From an uncultured archaeon (GTDB lineage: Archaea > Asgardarchaeota > Jordiarchaeia > Jordiarchaeales > Jordiarchaeaceae), in contig CAZECW010000025.1 in the NCBI GenBank assembly GCA_964510585.1, positions 4,737-36,736 of the forward strand: a stretch of DNA of 32,000 nt, read 5' to 3'. The notes beneath the pieces were generated by a model. It did no database searches. It saw only the letters and a program-made list of their open reading frames with translations, and was not told the origin of the DNA. This document shows, one piece after another, positions 23,843 through 31,622 of the stretch; the stretch's first letter is position 1; the number at the start of each line of letters is the position of its first letter. A program made the position numbers and the translations under genes.

Positions 23843-24477
23843 TATTTATTCCTCTTTTAGGTTGGTACAGGCCTTCCTAGGTAAATTGATGCGGTTTTTG
23901 GGTGTTTGTTTGTTCTGTTTTTTATAACTCATATTTTGGTGTCTTGGGTGTGCAATAAGAATTGTATATTATAATATTTTTGGAGTTATTTTTGGCACTG
24001 CTAAACCCGGTTTACCTTCTGTGTGTATTATAGTTTTGTCTTCTTCTGCTCTTTTTTGGTTTAAACCAAGCTCATATCCATTCTTTAAAACTTAGGGTTT
24101 CCTGTTTCAAACGATACTTTTCAAAACTTCTTCAATTCGTATGTGGAGGCTTATGTTGGGTTACCTCTGCTTGGTTCTTTTGAAAAATTATTGTAGTAAG
24201 TTTTTGTGGCTTTTATATATGATTTTACAATAATTATGGTGAAACTTTAGGGCAATTTAAGTATCTTGAAAAAGTGGATGATGAAAATATGCAGGATATT
24301 TTGGGAAAAATGTCTAGGTCTAATTTGCATCCTTTTCTGTGCCTTATCCTTCTATTACAAATTAAGTTTGTCTTGTTTAAGGTTGGTCAGCTGACCTTGA
24401 GCACCAGTTTTGTGAATCTTTCTCACTCCATTAACTCAGAATCATTTGTCCTGCCTTTTCTCATATTTTTTGGTGCA

Positions 24478-27348
24478 GTGTTTTTTGATGGAAAAAAGGT
24501 GCCTTTTTCTCGTTATCTCCTAACGCAGGATAAAATTAGATTACTTAGGGGAAAAAATGTCTTATCAGAGGAGACTGTTTTCCAATTACTTCCCCCTTCT
24601 GAAAAGGATGGATTTAACTCTCCCTTGTGCCAAAATTTTTTGGTTCCAGATGTAGAGCTAGATGAGCAACTGGAGTATGCGTACGAGATAAATGTTAGGG
24701 GGGAAACAATTTCTCCTTGCCTTTACATTTTTTCAAAGCAACCAATCATTGAAGAAGATTTAGATGAAAAAGTTCAATCTGTTCTGTCAACCTTTAACCT
24801 AGGCGCCGATTATACTAGAATGCGTTTCGAGATATTGGAAGAAGAGTTTTTGGGTTTGATAGGAGGAGCTTATTTCACTGCGATTCGAAAGGTTAAGGGT
24901 GAAAAAAATATTTTAATTCTGGACGCGGATGGAAACCCAACTTACATTGCTGTGCTTACTTTGAAGGGTGCCCCAAATTGTGAATCACTAGATCCACAGT
25001 GCTTAGATCTTTTCTTGAAATCTATTGAAAACTTGGATACAAATTTAAATCTCGTAATTCCTTTTCGATTTTTAAAAAGAAGGAAATCTGAACAGACTTA
25101 TAAGAACTTAAAAACAAGTGTTCGGGTTAAAAGTAAAACTCCAATTAAATACTGTGAAGCCTCTCCCTACATAGTTGTGAGGGGCGCCTCTCTAGAGAGC
25201 ATTAAAAATCACATGAAGAGAGTGCACGCCGCCGCCAGTGCTGCATGGTCCGGAGTTAGGGAAAGAATTAATGTAGAGTTCTTGGACTGTAGCATAATTA
25301 AAAAATTCCTACACAACATAATTTGTAGGCGACTCCTTCCAGATAAAGATGTCTTTTTCATAAAAAATTTAAGTATTTATTTGAAAGTTCCCACTTCAAC
25401 TAACGAGAAAAAGTTAAACTTTCCAATTGCCAATGAAAATCTGAAGGGCAATATTTCTAACAGCGATAAAATCCTATTGGGCGAAACTGCTTTGAGTGGA
25501 CGCACAGTATCCGTTTGGATGGATTATGAAAATTTGTTACACTACGTGGTCATTTTTGGCGAATCCTACGAAAAATCTTTTTTTATAATGAGCTTCCTCA
25601 AAAAAATTAAGAAGCCTTGGATAGTTTTCGATTTTAAGGGCGATCTCTCAAAGTTGAAGGATCTGTTTAATGATTCAATTTCATTTTTCAGTCTTAATTC
25701 TGGGTCTGAGCAACTTAAAATAAACCTCTTTGATCCTAAAGATAAATCGCCGGAGGAACACGCCTCATTCCTAATTAGTATTTTCAAAAAATTTTTTGAA
25801 AACAAATTGGAAAATATGCAGGAGCCACTTCACAGAATTCTGAGTCACTTCAGTAATGTGTTGAGATGTGAACATGGTCTCAGAGAGTTCGACAACGCCT
25901 TTAATGAAGTACTAAAAATTAATGATTCTAAAAAGCAGACCATCATAAGAGAACTTACACTCTTGCTCCACAATCTTCAGCAAGGTGTCCTAAGTAATGT
26001 TTTCAGCAGTAGCCACTCTAACATAGGCACAGAAATAGCTGATAAGCGTGTAATCATCGATTTAAATCATCCATACTCTGAAACAGATGCGACTGGCATA
26101 AAATTTCTCACAACCTATATTCTAGAAATATTATCTCGTGGTTCGTCTGAGATAGTAAATGGCTTAAAGCACGTAACGGTAATAAACTGCCCCGAAAACG
26201 GTTCAGAACTGATTAATTTTTTAACCAAGAAAGTTTTAGATAAATCCACTTTGCTAAAAAAAGGTGAGGGTCTAATTCTATCTGCCACCCATCCTCAAGA
26301 CTTTAAAAGCATCTATAGTTTGGATTCATGTTATACAATTATTTTTGGCGGTCTAAGAGAACCTAGAAGAGGTTCTGAAATAATAGGTGGGATAAATCCA
26401 GAAGAAATAGAGAATCTCGGCGGGAAAGCTTTAATGATAATTCCGGGAACAGGAAACAAAATAAAATTTGAACCTATTTGGGATAAAAACCTAATTAAAA
26501 AAGAAGCGACAATTCCTGCGCTTAAAGTTGAACCTATCGATAACCGTTTCAAAGCACCGGCCACTTTGGAAATGGAAGAGGCTAGTGACAAACTTGAGTT
26601 GAAACATCAGCCCCTCCCAGTAAAGAATACCTTCGTGACCGCCGATCAATTTCTCAGAGGAGTCCGTAACTCGAAAATTTCATTCGAACCCCCATATAAT
26701 TTAAGTAGTGAGCAGGTCGCAGTCCTCATAAATCAGGTTTTAGCCATTCTTGATAGTGAAATATACTTAACAGATCTTTTTATATCAAAAATAATAGGAA
26801 TACCCCCCAAGACTGTAAACAAAATTATGCGTGAAGTCTTAAATACAGATTCGGAAATTCAAAGAATATATGTTCCCGTAGTTGGAAGCAAAACCAATAT
26901 TCCTCTGTACTACTCCAAATTCGGACCCAAATACGAAAATGTGCAGGACAAGTATTTGAAGGATATACTAGAGGAGATGTGCTTTAAAAACGGCATCAAT
27001 TTCTCGCTAAAAAGAGATACCGAAACCGGAGCAGATGGTAAAATTGAATCCTACACTTTTAAACTGTTTGTTCATATACCTAACGATGATGAGCTAAAAA
27101 GCACATTTCAAAAATTATTTTTGAAGTTTAACAGAGTTGCAGTTTTGTTCCTCCACGAAAAAGATCTTGAAAAGGCCGAGAAGCTGAACAGTCAATGGAA
27201 AATACCTATACTTATGGGTAGCCTAATCAATCTTAACACATTTCTCACAGAAATAGTGGAGTCCTCTACCGAAAAAACATCCAACCCATCCTACACTCCA
27301 GAGAGAGATTTACAAGAGTTAATATCCTGGCTTCGAACCGAAACTTAA
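24478..27348 (+). CDS. Large VirB4/HerA(FtsK)-like protein with degenerate Walker motifs and C-terminal wHTH plus PD-(D/E)XK-like region
   Basis: ILLGET..GRTVSVWMDYENLLHYVVIFGESYEKS (Walker A position), WIVFDFKGD, LKINLFDP, RVIIDL, HVTVINCPE (Walker B position) and GEGLILSATHP. Start is placed at GTG 24478 after a GGTG SD-like site; the ORF track starts at 24274. Confidence 0.6.
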   Translation: MFFDGKKVPFSRYLLTQDKIRLLRGKNVLSEETVFQLLPPSEKDGFNSPLCQNFLVPDVELDEQLEYAYEINVRGETISPCLYIFSKQPIIEEDLDEKVQSVLSTFNLGADYTRMRFEILEEEFLGLIGGAYFTAIRKVKGEKNILILDADGNPTYIAVLTLKGAPNCESLDPQCLDLFLKSIENLDTNLNLVIPFRFLKRRKSEQTYKNLKTSVRVKSKTPIKYCEASPYIVVRGASLESIKNHMKRVHAAASAAWSGVRERINVEFLDCSIIKKFLHNIICRRLLPDKDVFFIKNLSIYLKVPTSTNEKKLNFPIANENLKGNISNSDKILLGETALSGRTVSVWMDYENLLHYVVIFGESYEKSFFIMSFLKKIKKPWIVFDFKGDLSKLKDLFNDSISFFSLNSGSEQLKINLFDPKDKSPEEHASFLISIFKKFFENKLENMQEPLHRILSHFSNVLRCEHGLREFDNAFNEVLKINDSKKQTIIRELTLLLHNLQQGVLSNVFSSSHSNIGTEIADKRVIIDLNHPYSETDATGIKFLTTYILEILSRGSSEIVNGLKHVTVINCPENGSELINFLTKKVLDKSTLLKKGEGLILSATHPQDFKSIYSLDSCYTIIFGGLREPRRGSEIIGGINPEEIENLGGKALMIIPGTGNKIKFEPIWDKNLIKKEATIPALKVEPIDNRFKAPATLEMEEASDKLELKHQPLPVKNTFVTADQFLRGVRNSKISFEPPYNLSSEQVAVLINQVLAILDSEIYLTDLFISKIIGIPPKTVNKIMREVLNTDSEIQRIYVPVVGSKTNIPLYYSKFGPKYENVQDKYLKDILEEMCFKNGINFSLKRDTETGADGKIESYTFKLFVHIPNDDELKSTFQKLFLKFNRVAVLFLHEKDLEKAEKLNSQWKIPILMGSLINLNTFLTEIVESSTEKTSNPSYTPERDLQELISWLRTET

Positions 27349-28456: not shown

Positions 28457-29785
28457 TCAAAGCCCTTTTTGCAGTCGCGTGTAGAAGCGAACAAGTGCTC
28501 CCGTTGCTTTAACCGCTCTCTCTACTTCAGTAAAAACTGGAATCCGAAGTTTATGTAGGCCACTAACCACACGCTCATAACAGTCATTTTCAATCTGGAT
28601 ACACGCCGCCACAATTGGCTTTAACCTTTTTTCTGCTGCTTCCTTAAAGGCTCCTTCCATATCAAACTCTATCTCCTTCATAAGTTCAAGCACAAGGATT
28701 ATAGCGTCTACATTCTCATCTTCAAGGAGGGCTTCCACTGCGATTTTGTGTTTGTTTCCCACCTCTACACCGTCAAGACGGCTTGGAGGCCAATAATCCA
28801 CAGGGTTTACGGTTTTTGTGCGCTCATTTAGCACTTTTGCTTTTAAGATTTTAACTGTGTTCGGGCTGAGATCGGCGATTTTTAATCCATTTTTTTCTAA
28901 TGATCTTAAGCCTAAATCAATCGCACCAGAGGAGGGGCCCACTATTGCAACTCTATTACCCTTAGGTTTAGGCGAGAGAACGAAAATCTTAGCTAATTCA
29001 AATATTTCAGTATAAAGGGATGCACAGATAGCTCCTGCCTTAACTAGTTGCTCTCTTCTCTCCTCAGGGCAATGCAAAATTACAGGCTTCTGACTGGAAA
29101 TTTCCCTAACCACAGCTACAATTTCATCAGTAATTCTTCTAAAATATGCTGTAATAACCCTAGTAGAGGGATCTTGTGCAAAAAATCTGAGTAGCTCTCC
29201 TTCGCTGACATCACAGGTATTTCCTAAATGGACTATTTTGTTGAATCTTAAATCGTCTGGCTGCCACCATCCAAGTCCCCCAGAAAGCCCGCCACTTTGA
29301 CCAATAAAGCTCACCTCCCCTGCTTGGAAATTTCTAACAGGAGTAAAAGTTGTGGCGAAACGATTGGTGTAATCTATTAAACCTATAGTATTGGGGCCAA
29401 TAAGCCTCAAATTGTTCTCCTTAGCTATACGAGTGAGTGTTTCCTCTTTCTTTTTTCCCCATTCGTCGCATTCGGAGAAACCCGAGGATTGCAAGATAAT
29501 GTTCTTAACACCTCTTCTAGCCAACTCTTCAACCGCATCCACCACTAGATCTGAAGATAAAGCAACAATTGCTGTCTCTGGAACTTCTGGGATATCTTTA
29601 ACAGCTTTAAAGGCGGGAAAGCCAAGAATACTATCCCTATCAGGGTGAACCAAAAAGACTTTGCCAGTGTAGCCGATTTCGATTATGTTCTTTAAAATCT
29701 GGTTTCCAAATTTTCCAGGAGAGTTTGAGGCTCCCAGAATAAGGATGCTTTTAGGATTAAAGAAAGATTCTAAACTCATCTTCAA
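28457..29785 (-). CDS. Acyl-CoA synthetase (ADP-forming, ACD) alpha-subunit homologue lacking the phospho-histidine loop
   Basis: FNPKSI.ILGAS, SSGFSE, RLIGPNTIG, SFIGQSGG, GNRVAIV and NPVD are present. The K.GRT...SHTG.LAG segment is absent (KPVILHCPEERREQLVKAGAI). Confidence 0.85.
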   Translation of the reverse strand: MKMSLESFFNPKSILILGASNSPGKFGNQILKNIIEIGYTGKVFLVHPDRDSILGFPAFKAVKDIPEVPETAIVALSSDLVVDAVEELARRGVKNIILQSSGFSECDEWGKKKEETLTRIAKENNLRLIGPNTIGLIDYTNRFATTFTPVRNFQAGEVSFIGQSGGLSGGLGWWQPDDLRFNKIVHLGNTCDVSEGELLRFFAQDPSTRVITAYFRRITDEIVAVVREISSQKPVILHCPEERREQLVKAGAICASLYTEIFELAKIFVLSPKPKGNRVAIVGPSSGAIDLGLRSLEKNGLKIADLSPNTVKILKAKVLNERTKTVNPVDYWPPSRLDGVEVGNKHKIAVEALLEDENVDAIILVLELMKEIEFDMEGAFKEAAEKRLKPIVAACIQIENDCYERVVSGLHKLRIPVFTEVERAVKATGALVRFYTRLQKGL

Positions 29786-30864
29786 TCCCCATACCTAAAC
29801 GCCTCTAAGATGCTGGAACACGCCCCACAACGCACACATCCAGCACGATTCCTAGAAGGATCAAGATTGTATTCAGACAAAATCTCGGCGACCTTTCGGT
29901 AAAGATTTATCATTCTTCCGGCATTCGGTGGGTTACGATTCTCAAACTCAGTTCCCAAAATCGGTCTGAAGGGAACCAAAAAGGGAACAACTCCTAACCT
30001 GGTGACTATTTCCACCCCCTGTAATATGCTTTCATCATCCTCTCCTAAACCTGCAATAATATAAGTACTAACCTGCGCCTCCCCAAATAGTTCCACCGCT
30101 TCTCTCCACGCCTTCAAATACTCATCAAAACTGACCTGAGCCTTACCCGGACATACACTTTCTAAAACTGTCCTGTCAAAATTTTCTATGTGAATACCAA
30201 CCGTATCCACACCCACATCTGCTAATAACTCCAAATAACCAACACTGGGCGGCTCCAGCTGTACATGGATTGGAACATCATAGTTTTCCTTTAATTCTCT
30301 AGTTGTTTCTGCCAGAATTTTTGCTCCTCTGTCGGGCGTGCCGGGAGTGCCGGTAGTTAATGTGATGTGGCGACAGACACCTTCTTCAACTGCTGCTCCC
30401 ACAACCTCTACCAACTCTTTGGGATTTTTTCTTGGAACTGTTGACCCATCCTTTAGTGAATTTTCAATCCCACAAAACTTACAACTCTGGCCAGTGGACC
30501 AATATACACATTTCTGAAGAACCGTTGTTGCCAAACAATCTTTACCGTGGAGGAGTGCTATTTTATACATGGGTTGTCCGCTGGATGTTTTTAGAGAATA
30601 AAACCTGGGGGAATCAATTAATTCTATATTGGTGATCTTCTCTCTATCTTTGTAAAGAGACCAGCTGGAACCGAGCCTTCTTAAAATAATATCCGAATTT
30701 TTTACAAAGTGAGGCCACAGGGGAACATTAACTACAGAGTTATTGGGTAAAATCATGAATCTTCCGCCAGCTGGGCCGGCTCCTGCCTTCCTCCCCTTTT
30801 CGATGCTGTCTTCTGTCTTAACCCCTTTGCAGAGGAGCTCTGTCTTTAAATTCATTAGTTTCAA
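29782..30864 (-). CDS. Radical SAM protein, MSMEG_0568 / Nit1C NitD family
   Basis: GAGP, PRFY.LKT..G.P..KIALLHG.D.LATTVLQKC, expanded CX8CX2C (CVYWSTGQSCKFC), GIHIE, PFLVPFRPI.GT and a C-terminal AGCVRCGACS. Confidence 0.88.
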   Translation of the reverse strand: MKLMNLKTELLCKGVKTEDSIEKGRKAGAGPAGGRFMILPNNSVVNVPLWPHFVKNSDIILRRLGSSWSLYKDREKITNIELIDSPRFYSLKTSSGQPMYKIALLHGKDCLATTVLQKCVYWSTGQSCKFCGIENSLKDGSTVPRKNPKELVEVVGAAVEEGVCRHITLTTGTPGTPDRGAKILAETTRELKENYDVPIHVQLEPPSVGYLELLADVGVDTVGIHIENFDRTVLESVCPGKAQVSFDEYLKAWREAVELFGEAQVSTYIIAGLGEDDESILQGVEIVTRLGVVPFLVPFRPILGTEFENRNPPNAGRMINLYRKVAEILSEYNLDPSRNRAGCVRCGACSSILEAFRYGD

Positions 30865-31238: not shown

Positions 31239-31622
31239 TTGGTTACAGAATTAAAGGAAGAAAAATTCAAGGAGTTTGTTTCATCGAATCCTATAGTGTT
31301 AGTAGATTTCTCAGCAACTTGGTGTGGTCCCTGTAGAATTCAGGGAAAAATTCTAGACGGTATTGAAGCTAAATTTGGGAATAAAATTGCGATAGCCAAA
31401 GTTGATGTTGACCAAAATCCGAATCTTGCACGAGATTTTAACATTTACGCAGTACCTTCACTAGTATTTTTCTACAAAGGACAGCCTGTAGTTTTTGATG
31501 TAGAATCTGAAGAATCAACTGAGGAAGAACTGATAGAATCCTCAAAGTTAGTGGGGGTTCAAAGCGAAGAAAACCTTGAAAAAATTATAGAAGAGCTTCT
31601 CTCACAAAAAGACTCCAAGTAA
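31239..31622 (+). CDS. trxA: Thioredoxin with an acidic insertion
   Basis: LVDFSATWCGPC, KVDVDQNP and AVPSLVFF. TTG start. Confidence 0.92.
   Translation: MVTELKEEKFKEFVSSNPIVLVDFSATWCGPCRIQGKILDGIEAKFGNKIAIAKVDVDQNPNLARDFNIYAVPSLVFFYKGQPVVFDVESEESTEEELIESSKLVGVQSEENLEKIIEELLSQKDSK

Follow-up and report, generated by a model that had tools for sequence, protein, structure and literature searches.

What does a radical SAM enzyme do with an acyl-CoA synthetase subunit that has lost its catalytic loop? The question is raised by two minus-strand genes in the stretch of DNA analysed here (the window, 32,000 nucleotides), in which a radical SAM gene of the MSMEG_0568/NitD family runs directly into a gene for a homologue of the alpha subunit of NDP-forming acyl-CoA synthetases (ACDs). 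The NitD-NitE-NitF core of the Nit1C cluster, to which this radical SAM family belongs, has been recognised since 2005. The Nit1C gene order is radical SAM, acetyltransferase, AIR synthase (PMC1199592, PMC8567248). In the window the ACD-alpha-like gene takes the place of the acetyltransferase (GNAT) gene. We consider it probable (about 0.6) that the two proteins belong to a three-protein CoA-dependent radical system in which the loop-less protein displaced the GNAT and supplies an acyl-CoA thioester. The datasets listed as containing the stretch are all hot-spring DNA metagenomes, with no RNA dataset among them.

The radical SAM protein and the gene junction

The radical SAM gene (positions 29782-30864, minus strand) encodes a protein of 360 aa that matches TIGR04043 and PF04055. 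The TIGR04043 score of 356.8 bits is above the curated cut-off of 303.7 and a genome-wide search agreed with this. The AF2 model has a pLDDT of 95.5, and the nearest solved folds are those of LipA, HydE and BioB at a TM of ca. 0.48. A variant radical SAM cluster motif, C119-x8-C128-x2-C131, was read from the codons at 30472-30510 (minus strand), and a second cysteine motif, C343-x2-C346-x2-C349, lies at the C-terminal end (29818-29838, minus strand). All six cysteines are invariant in an alignment of 66 relatives (alignment A2) that includes radical SAM proteins of both partner types described below. The C-terminal cysteines likely form the site of an auxiliary Fe-S cluster, for which C110 and C238, each at least 90% conserved, are candidate fourth ligands. 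Conservation also marks an N-terminal Gly-rich basic loop, R25..G28-A-G-P-x-G-G-R35 (30760-30792, minus strand), where R25, G28, A29 and G30 are invariant and P31, G33, G34 and R35 at least 90% conserved among the same relatives. The loop has no regular secondary structure in the AF2 model; our guess is that it binds phosphate or a nucleotide.

At the gene junction (29777-29785, minus strand) the radical SAM stop codon TGA occupies 29784-29782. A TTG at 29785-29783 overlaps this stop as TTGA, giving a 4 nt overlap. An alternative ATG at 29779-29777, 2 nt past the stop, gives the N-terminus MSLESFFNPKS, which agrees more closely than the TTG start with how orthologues and 2csu begin, and GGGGAT lies 5 nt upstream of it. 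Judged from the junction sequence, the genes are tightly coupled with either start. In the close relatives (L018, L019 and L017) the junction is a gap of 0-3 nt or a short overlap.

A thioredoxin gene (31239-31622, plus strand; PF00085 at 7e-22) is divergent from the radical SAM gene. It could conceivably encode an accessory of the pair; as a fixed partner it was rejected, its position being kept only in a genome of the same genus (L017), with one fusion elsewhere. The latter is at the distant locus L010, where a CoA_binding_2-thioredoxin fusion is located directly 3' of the radical SAM gene. No ATP-grasp gene was found within the window.

An acyl-CoA synthetase scaffold without its swinging loop

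The ACD-alpha-like gene (28457-29785, minus strand), recognised with Pfam and NCBIfam models, encodes 442 aa, or 440 aa from the ATG. Residues 12-136 (29378-29752, minus strand) form a CoA-binding Rossmann domain that matches PF13380 (CoA_binding_2) at 2.3e-22 and PF02629 at 6.6e-11. Its residues G18, S20, N33, P69, G130 and G135 are invariant among 64 orthologues. The protein scored 289.6 bits with TIGR02717, below the cut-off of 567.15, and covers only positions 1-93 of the 138 of the Succ_CoA_lig profile. The AF2 model (pLDDT 94.3) superimposes on the ACD alpha chains 2csu, 4xyl and 4xz3 with TM values of 0.86-0.89. By the Pfam matches and the model comparison, the subdomain 1-2-5 ACD-alpha fold and the CoA-binding Rossmann domain are retained.

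Alignments to 2csu, 9y43 and 4xyl all break at residues 238-248 (29042-29074, minus strand), a short connector that stands in place of the 21-residue phospho-His swinging loop. Against 2csu, residues 237 to 249 align to 234 to 267, so about 21 residues are absent. A joint alignment showed a deletion of 19-21 residues at the SHTG loop in this protein and every orthologue. The loss, together with the change to GPSSG described below, was seen in 16 orthologues from MAGs labelled Frey-, Jord-, Hel-, Loki-, Njord-, Odin- and Hermod-, whereas three distant hits keep SHTG. All 23 other ACD-alpha paralogues of the same genome also keep the loop ('..SHTGS..'). The loop-less orthologues span Asgard classes at 36-94% identity, 44 residues are invariant in the alignment of 64, and the protein is under purifying selection.

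Both phosphate-binding helix tips of the ACD active site remain. The first power helix tip, S164-G165-G166 in subdomain 2 (29288-29296, minus strand), is invariant in the 64 orthologues and aligns with G163-A164 of Nmar_0206 (8WZU), which hold the active-site sulfate. The second, G283-P284-S285-S286-G287 in subdomain 5 (28925-28939, minus strand), corresponds to G310-G311 of 8WZU, so that both tips map to sulfate-binding helix tips; P284, S285, S286 and G287 are invariant. This tip reads GPSSG, against TNAGG or SNAGG (T/S-x-x-GG) in ACDs. In 8WZU the swinging loop is S246-I266 with H256, and phosphate transfer in ACDs across ca. 30 Å depends on this loop (PMC11494057). Among the 64 aligned loop-less orthologues not one His is invariant or reaches 90% conservation, and H238 of the ILHC sequence is not conserved, the consensus there being FFYVGK. 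Since the loop is gone and no His replaces it, the loop-less protein, as read from its sequence, can neither act as an NTP-forming ligase nor exchange phosphate with a nucleotide. Given the invariance of both phosphate-binding helix tips, it may still perform acyl transfer at the site that remains. That it binds CoA is predicted from the domain and its residue conservation.

An earlier note on this DNA had described the tight coupling, the CX8CX2C and CxxCxxC motifs, a retained Rossmann domain and overall length, and the loss of about 20 residues around SHTG with GPSSG in the second tip. These descriptions held up, with the ATG as the better-fitting start and the deletion extending over the whole orthologous family. 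A phosphorylated His in ILHC, which the note had named as a way to a normal ligase, found no support in the orthologues.

In automatic annotation the loop-less family goes by 'CoA-binding protein' or 'acyl-CoA synthetase (NDP forming)', and the latter name would wrongly raise estimates of substrate-level ATP formation in models of Asgard metabolism.

Partners of the radical SAM gene across genomes

The partner of the radical SAM gene was surveyed in 201 Asgard genomes grouped by GTDB family (labelled f). Five families are of the loop-less type, with the protein in 5/5 genomes of f1, 5/5 of f2, 2/3 of f13, 38/41 of f9 and 3/3 of f23; none of the 57 genomes of these families has the GNAT partner. 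Six families, f7 (40/43), f8, f12 (19/19), f15, f16 and f18, are of the GNAT type, and no loop-less orthologue was found in them. A small GNAT directly beside the radical SAM gene with no loop-less orthologue occurred in 69 genomes, and a loop-less orthologue with no GNAT in about 53 genomes plus the studied one. The two together were found in none of the genomes searched; exactly one of the two CoA-binding partners is linked to the radical SAM gene. In the studied genome the GNAT partner family is absent, the best match reaching 24 bits compared with more than 200 for true members. These phyletic patterns come from related genomes, many of them closely so, and are not independent observations. 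Of 80 loop-less loci drawn from 185,579 species genomes, 46 have a radical SAM gene within 4 kb and none has the GNAT.

The GNAT gene adjoins the radical SAM gene in all GNAT-type cases. In one genus (L039, L040) the two are fused with the radical SAM part N-terminal, and L010 has an AIRS-GNAT fusion beside the radical SAM gene. The in-frame stop reported for the GNAT match of G139 (L034) is its terminal stop codon; in-frame stops were also reported in other GNAT matches and in AIRS-like matches. The loop-less gene is adjacent to the radical SAM gene or 0.8-17 kb away, in three arrangements over the five families. In f1, f2, f13 and some Helarchaeota-labelled loci (L091, L092) the two genes lie side by side in one direction; further loci with that label (L088, L090) have them convergent, and in f9 and f23 they are divergent at 0.8-17 kb. 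Co-transcription is not general, because in f9 the two genes are on opposite strands with unrelated ones, for ribosomal L10e and an Arf-like GTPase, between them. A quick radical SAM tree needs at least two changes of partner label; therefore either the GNAT was not replaced in one simple event or the tree lacks resolution.

No fusion of a radical SAM protein to the loop-less protein was found among proteins of 775-2210 aa, which the search tool itself rates as weak evidence. The relatives of the loop-less protein in this size range were only Pat-type fusions of an ACD-like part with a GNAT, at no more than 31% identity. Complex prediction for the pair with alignments A2 and A1 gave a score of 0.00 and was counted neither way.

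A third gene follows the radical SAM gene. It is an AIR-synthase-like gene of the methanogenesis-marker-2/sll0787 type (TIGR03267/TIGR04049-like, NitF type), and in the studied genome it is located on another contig (G000:C146:17484-18446; TIGR03267, 378.8 bits). It tracks the radical SAM gene family by family in both partner types. In f16 both genes are present twice, and in two of the five f1 genomes, both fragmented assemblies, the AIR-synthase-like gene was not found. It is unlinked to the radical SAM gene in Asgard genomes and adjoins it in Bathyarchaeota. Genes for the nitrilase, GNAT, flavoprotein, MSMEG_0570 and MSMEG_0572 families are absent from the window, and none scored above cut-off genome-wide. 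Literature searches on Nit1C, MSMEG_0568, COG2516/COG2144 and methanogenesis marker 2 turned up no functional study of the radical SAM, GNAT or AIRS proteins.

These surveys bear on the larger claims of the earlier note. It had stated that nitrilase, GNAT, AIR-synthase-like and flavoprotein genes are missing from the window, which is correct; of the Nit1C genes it left to be sought in the genome, only the AIR-synthase-like one was recovered. The pairing, for which it feared uniqueness to one genome, recurs in five Asgard families, and its idea of the loop-less protein as a substitute for the Nit1C GNAT agrees with the either/or pattern. Its two-gene module survives as a pairing, not as a self-contained unit, given the co-occurring third gene.

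Two wider links were considered and rejected. In the studied genome and in f13 the AIR-synthase-like gene has aSelB, SepSecS and Sel_Asgard as its neighbours, while in f7 a few genes intervene. A selenium requirement was discarded: SepSecS was not found in the trio-bearing families f8, f12, f15 and f18, and the studied genome has a true SelD gene, with an in-frame TGA, at another locus. At two non-Asgard loci, L009 (Bathyarchaeota) and L010, FmdE, TM1506, CooT and a CooC-like gene are upstream of the trio. A link to CODH/ACS or nickel showed no tight tie, CdhC being present in 16/43 f7 genomes and also in the trio-less families f4 and f20.

Proposed system, alternatives and known relatives

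In the proposed system, which would be conserved in anaerobic archaea, a NitD-type radical SAM enzyme would work with a partner that binds acyl-CoA and with an ATP-using enzyme of the AIR-synthase-like kind. A small GNAT, like those of bacterial Nit1C, of Bathyarchaeota and of six Asgard families, would have been the ancestral partner. It would have been displaced, in the studied lineage and four other Asgard families, by a duplicate of an ACD alpha subunit that lost its phospho-His swinging loop. Site I, which the loop-less protein has kept, would bind a short acyl-CoA, and the protein would hand this thioester to the pathway, thereby doing the job done by the GNAT elsewhere. Two ways of doing so appear about equally likely. 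The acyl-CoA could be held such that the 5'-deoxyadenosyl radical takes a hydrogen from the acyl group, much as the GNAT domain presents acetyl-CoA in Elp3, or an acceptor bound at the phosphate site could receive the acyl group from the loop-less protein. An ATP-dependent activation or cyclisation by the AIR-synthase-like enzyme would follow. On gene content, the pathway is not nitrile hydrolysis because no Nit1C nitrilase is present. By the same measure, since both partner types also carry the AIR-synthase-like gene, the trio is a nitrilase-less relative of the NitD-NitE-NitF core, with a CoA-binding protein that is not homologous to the GNAT in the GNAT's place.

A more detailed version is tentative, and we would sooner doubt it than rely on it. 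The loop-less protein might be a 'site-I-only' acyl-CoA synthetase remnant and a novel type of partner for a radical SAM enzyme, holding acyl-CoA by the phosphate pocket. The NitD-type enzyme might then make a radical centred on the acyl-CoA, or a phosphorylated intermediate from the AIR-synthase-like enzyme might take over the acyl group. The product would be a small molecule or cofactor widespread in anaerobic archaea, built by a core shared with bacterial Nit1C.

The loop-less protein could instead be a regulator or sensor that binds CoA or acetyl-CoA and tunes the activity or assembly of the radical SAM enzyme to the acyl-CoA pool, as is thought for the ACD-like N-terminal domain of PatZ/Pat acting on its GNAT domain. 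PatZ (9it0, 9isq; 108 bits, TM 0.85) provides a solved ACD-like scaffold without the catalytic His, and since the longer relatives are all Pat-type fusions, non-ligase ACD-like domains recur as acetyl-CoA-binding modules. We nevertheless regard this explanation as unlikely. The loop-less protein stands in for a GNAT and does not accompany one; a regulator would be an unexpected substitute for a catalytic acyltransferase that in some genomes is fused to the radical SAM enzyme. A mere CoA sensor would also need neither of the invariant helix tips, and the PatZ loop is of normal length whereas here it is deleted.

Lower still is the probability that the two genes share inherited synteny without a functional link, with the loop-less protein serving an unrelated CoA-dependent process and the loss of the GNAT being coincidental. 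The close relationship of many counted genomes would favor this, as would the unrelated genes and differing strands in Lokiarchaeia-type genomes. Yet the linkage outlasts three arrangements in five families, presence and absence agree genome by genome except for contig-edge cases, and the genes of the studied genome are 2 nt apart or overlap by 4 nt. The exact complementarity with an always-adjacent GNAT is hard to obtain by chance. That the protein is still a working ACD alpha subunit, with a different His in use and a beta subunit from another locus, is the least credible alternative and very improbable. The fold and length are retained and the many ACD paralogues in the genome mean that beta subunits are available, but all orthologues lack the entire swinging loop needed for the long-range phosphate transfer (PMC11494057), H238 and every other His fail as a conserved replacement, and the TIGR02717 score is about half the cut-off.

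With the three-protein radical system as the preferred reading, the pairing points to a CoA-dependent radical pathway in which, across Asgard archaea, a loop-less protein sits in the acetyltransferase's usual place. Many genomes of Asgard archaea and Bathyarchaeota have the NitD-NitE-NitF core but no nitrilase to go with it. A CoA-binding scaffold unrelated to the GNAT can stand in for it, which narrows the required contribution of the partner to an acyl-CoA. Two natural versions of the system, GNAT and loop-less, are available for comparison in vitro. The loop-less family is essentially restricted to Asgard archaea and appears to be an ACD alpha subunit that was stripped of its phospho-His loop and then reused.

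The pairing resembles the Nit1C core NitD-NitE-NitF (MSMEG_0568/TIGR04043, GNAT, sll0787/TIGR04049) in a radical SAM protein above the family cut-off with the same Cys motifs, in the co-occurring AIR-synthase-like gene, and in the GNAT found beside the radical SAM gene in Bathyarchaeota and six Asgard families. It differs in that the studied genome lacks the other Nit1C families, has the ACD-alpha-derived protein in place of the GNAT and carries the AIR-synthase-like gene unlinked; the archaeal GNAT partner, moreover, is not recognised by TIGR04045. With ACD alpha subunits (PH0766, 2csu; Ca. Korarchaeum ACD1, 4xyl; Nmar_0206, 8wzu) the loop-less protein shares the 1-2-5 fold, the Rossmann domain and the QSGG helix tip. 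Unlike them it has no swinging loop, has GPSSG instead of TNAGG, falls below the family cut-off, and has a radical SAM gene, not one for an ATP-grasp beta subunit, as its linked neighbour. The loop-less family also has new invariant aromatic residues (W173, W174, W332, Y258, F262 and F374). The PatZ/Pat N-terminal domain is likewise an ACD-like scaffold that lacks the catalytic His, binds acetyl-CoA and has a GNAT as its working partner. PatZ, however, has a normal-length loop, an ATP-grasp-like part and a fused GNAT, whereas the loop-less protein is a stand-alone polypeptide of 442 aa with neither of these parts.

In Elp3 a radical SAM domain is fused to a GNAT domain and acetyl-CoA is the substrate of the radical reaction. 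The canonical Elp3 of the studied genome is a separate gene (G000:C18:16786-18324; TIGR01211, 744.6 bits), and the radical SAM protein studied here fails the Elp3 model; beyond the superfamily the NitD-type enzyme is not homologous. The likeness is of mechanism only, that of a radical SAM enzyme with a partner that binds acetyl-CoA, as predicted here. One Asgard genus even fuses the NitD-like radical SAM protein N-terminally to the GNAT, which is the domain order of Elp3.

The radical SAM gene and its loop-less partner

The upstream member of the pair (29782-30864, minus strand, 360 aa) encodes a protein that matches TIGR04043, the MSMEG_0568 family, with 356.8 bits, exceeding the curated 303.7-bit cut-off. 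It has the variant SAM-cluster motif C119-x8-C128-x2-C131 and, at its C-terminal end, C343-x2-C346-x2-C349. Both groups had been read from the sequence in the earlier note, and all six cysteines proved invariant in an alignment of 66 relatives. A structure search with the AF2 model (pLDDT 95.5) found no close solved relative, the nearest folds being lipoyl synthase, HydE and biotin synthase (TM ~0.48). Judged by score and motifs, not by context, the protein is assigned to the NitD family. Divergent from this gene lies a thioredoxin gene (31239-31622), a position kept in a same-genus genome.

The TGA stop of the radical SAM gene (29784-29782) overlaps a TTG (29785-29783), so that the TTGA junction noticed earlier can be read directly, although an ATG 2 nt beyond the stop (29779-29777, giving MSLESFFNPKS) fits the orthologues and PH0766 better as the start of the second gene. 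Either start leaves the two genes tightly packed. The downstream gene (28457-29785, minus strand) encodes 442 aa; about 1.1 kb from its 3' end, on the far side of a TPR gene, is a 1024-aa ORF (24274-27348) with no Pfam match.

The AF2 model of the downstream product (pLDDT 94.3) superimposes on the NDP-forming acyl-CoA synthetase (ACD) structures 2csu, 4xyl and 4xz3 with TM 0.86-0.89, which predicts an ACD alpha-subunit fold. Alignments with the solved ACDs 2csu, 9y43 and 4xyl break at 236-237 and resume at 249, skipping ~21 target residues. The missing stretch is the swinging loop of Nmar_0206, S246-I266 with H256 (PMC11494057). In the window protein and in 16/16 orthologues, from MAGs labelled Frey-, Jord-, Hel-, Loki-, Njord/Atabey-, Odin- and Hermodarchaeota, 19-21 residues are absent here and GPSSG stands where ACDs have TNAGG. 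Both changes had been claimed from the single protein, and the alignments show that the loop loss is a real, family-wide trait. The protein has the modelled ACD alpha fold yet fails in two respects that define ACDs: it scores below the family cut-off and lacks the phospho-His loop. The same genome encodes ~23 further ACD-alpha paralogues, several in tandem (e.g. C9:4405-8686, C160:8572-11284), a large expansion in which SHTG or a close variant is kept in 23/23.

Conservation of the pairing and the alternative GNAT partner

The loop-less protein and TIGR04043 served as queries against 201 Asgard genomes. Close loop-less orthologues occurred in five GTDB families (f1 5/5, f2 5/5, f13 2/3, f9 38/41 including two cut by contig ends, f23 3/3), counts that overstate independence because of the relatedness among the genomes. 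Both genes lie on one contig in nearly all of these genomes, the exceptions being fragmented assemblies. In f1, f2 and f13 they adjoin co-directionally. In f9 and f23 they are divergent and separated by 0.8-17 kb holding unrelated genes, among them those for ribosomal protein L10e and an Arf-like GTPase, and at two Helarchaeota-labelled loci they are convergent. Scanning 185,579 species, with one genome for each, gave 170 relatives; the best 80 were all from Asgard-labelled MAGs except three oddly labelled ones, and 46 of these 80 loci had the radical SAM gene within 4 kb. The pairing is conserved. At one Lokiarchaeota locus (RDOG01000006, L004:7077-13011) a co-directional run comprises CN_hydrolase, a Tyw1-like radical SAM gene (Wyosine_form), the pair, a PF03692 CxxCxxCC protein and Zn-ADH, with a second, ordinary ACD alpha 8 kb upstream; at none of the other loci was a CN_hydrolase seen nearby.

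Clustering the neighbours of 46 radical SAM loci revealed a GNAT of ~165 aa directly beside the radical SAM gene in every locus from f7, f8, f12, f15, f16 and f18, and never at loci holding the loop-less protein. In genus g21 of f12 it is fused to the radical SAM C-terminus (541 and 577 aa). Profile matches occurred in 69/201 genomes (f7 40/43, f8 1/1, f12 19/19, f15 3/4, f16 5/5, f18 1/1), versus 0/57 in f1, f2, f9, f13 and f23; the best match in the window's own genome reached 24 bits, against >200 bits for members. GNAT and loop-less protein are alternatives, as the earlier suggestion of a replacement had anticipated. A quick radical SAM tree needs at least two changes of partner label, so that the swap may not have been a single event. 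Sixteen other Asgard families lacked the TIGR04043-type radical SAM, this GNAT and the loop-less protein among the 201 genomes; a weak, partial radical SAM match in f10 (E 3e-22) was not accepted as an orthologue. In f7 (L028-L035, L055, L056), GlpA-like, GlpB-like, CCG/4Fe-4S and FAD-oxidase genes immediately precede the radical SAM-GNAT pair on the same strand.

The nearest radical SAM relatives outside Asgard (55-60% identity) are from Bathyarchaeota, where locus L009 has the order GNAT, radical SAM, AIR-synthase-like (AIRS). Locus L010, from an unclassified archaeal contig, has an AIRS-GNAT fusion, radical SAM and a 284-aa CoA_binding_2-thioredoxin fusion (L010:9160-10014). Just upstream in both non-Asgard loci are FmdE, TM1506, CooT and a CooC/CbiA-like ATPase (L009:3042-5227, L010:4359-6284), with NikR_C additionally in L009; CdhC does not track the trio of radical SAM, CoA partner and AIRS in Asgard.

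Possible roles of the loop-less protein

A domain search showed that the CoA-binding Rossmann domain is kept. An alignment of 64 orthologues has 44 invariant positions, and S164-G165-G166 and P284-S285-S286-G287 are kept. By alignment these correspond to the two power-helix tips of 8WZU, where G163, A164, G310 and G311 hold the active-site sulfate/phosphate (PMC11494057). Site I looks preserved, and new invariant aromatics are W173, W174, Y258, F262, W332 and F374. No histidine is invariant or even 90% conserved in these 64 sequences, and having no phospho-His route the protein is predicted to be unable to move phosphate to a nucleotide. The earlier note had left room for phosphorylation of another histidine, for instance the one in ILHC; since this residue, H238, is not conserved, the escape is removed, and a still-working ligase, for all its ACD fold, is highly improbable.

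Mere synteny is improbable. The loop-less protein is genomically tied to the radical SAM protein, to which the GNAT is fused in some genomes, and loop-less protein and GNAT are mutually exclusive; independent lines for the link come from the variety of arrangements, from the fusions and from the Bathyarchaeota loci. A sensor resembling PatZ, a protein acetyltransferase with an ACD-like domain, is also unlikely, though less so. Because acyl-CoA thioester binding is the feature shared by GNAT and ACD-alpha site I, the loop-less protein most likely serves as the subunit that handles acyl-CoA in the system (probability about 0.6). As such a subunit it might present the acyl-CoA for hydrogen abstraction by a 5'-deoxyadenosyl radical, for which Elp3 is the one known precedent; the genome also has a canonical Elp3 gene at another place. 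It might instead transfer the acyl group to an acceptor occupying the phosphate site, perhaps fed by the ATP-using AIR-synthase-like enzyme.

The AIR-synthase-like component and relation to Nit1C

The proposed search for remaining Nit1C genes yielded an AIRS gene on another contig of the genome (G000:C146:17484-18446), of the family that adjoins the radical SAM gene in Bathyarchaeota. The TIGR03267 model (methanogenesis marker 2; cut-off 365) gives it 378.8 bits, and TIGR04049 (sll0787 AIR-synthase-like) gives 263.8 bits. Across the 201 genomes AIRS and the radical SAM gene occur in 124 and 123 genomes, with the same family-level distribution; of the five genomes in f16, three (G031, G041, G058) have two AIRS copies and a second radical SAM-family match. 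Of the two-gene module once envisaged the pairing thus stands, but it is not self-contained.

The AIRS gene follows aSelB, SepSecS and an NF045535 'Sel_Asgard' gene (G000:C146:13300-18750; L016:4337-9744), and precedes a conserved basic ORF of ~75 aa with CxxxxC...CxxHYK and a C-terminal RxGLPF. The block is also present in f13, and f7 has it with the genes reordered; four trio-bearing families yielded no SepSecS.

The possibility that the pairing is unique to this genome, with a full Nit1C cluster elsewhere, is contradicted by its presence in five Asgard families and by the lack of matches above cut-off for the nitrilase, flavoprotein and two small proteins of Nit1C in this 96% complete genome. 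No functional study of NitD, NitE or NitF proteins, nor any account of the loop-less family, came up in literature searches. Bacterial Nit1C has the order nitrilase, radical SAM, acetyltransferase, AIR synthase (PMC1199592, PMC8567248), whereas the archaeal system lacks nitrilase, flavoprotein and both small proteins. Because of this gene order and these absences, it corresponds to the NitD-NitE-NitF core alone, and is a variant of a known, uncharacterised kind of system.
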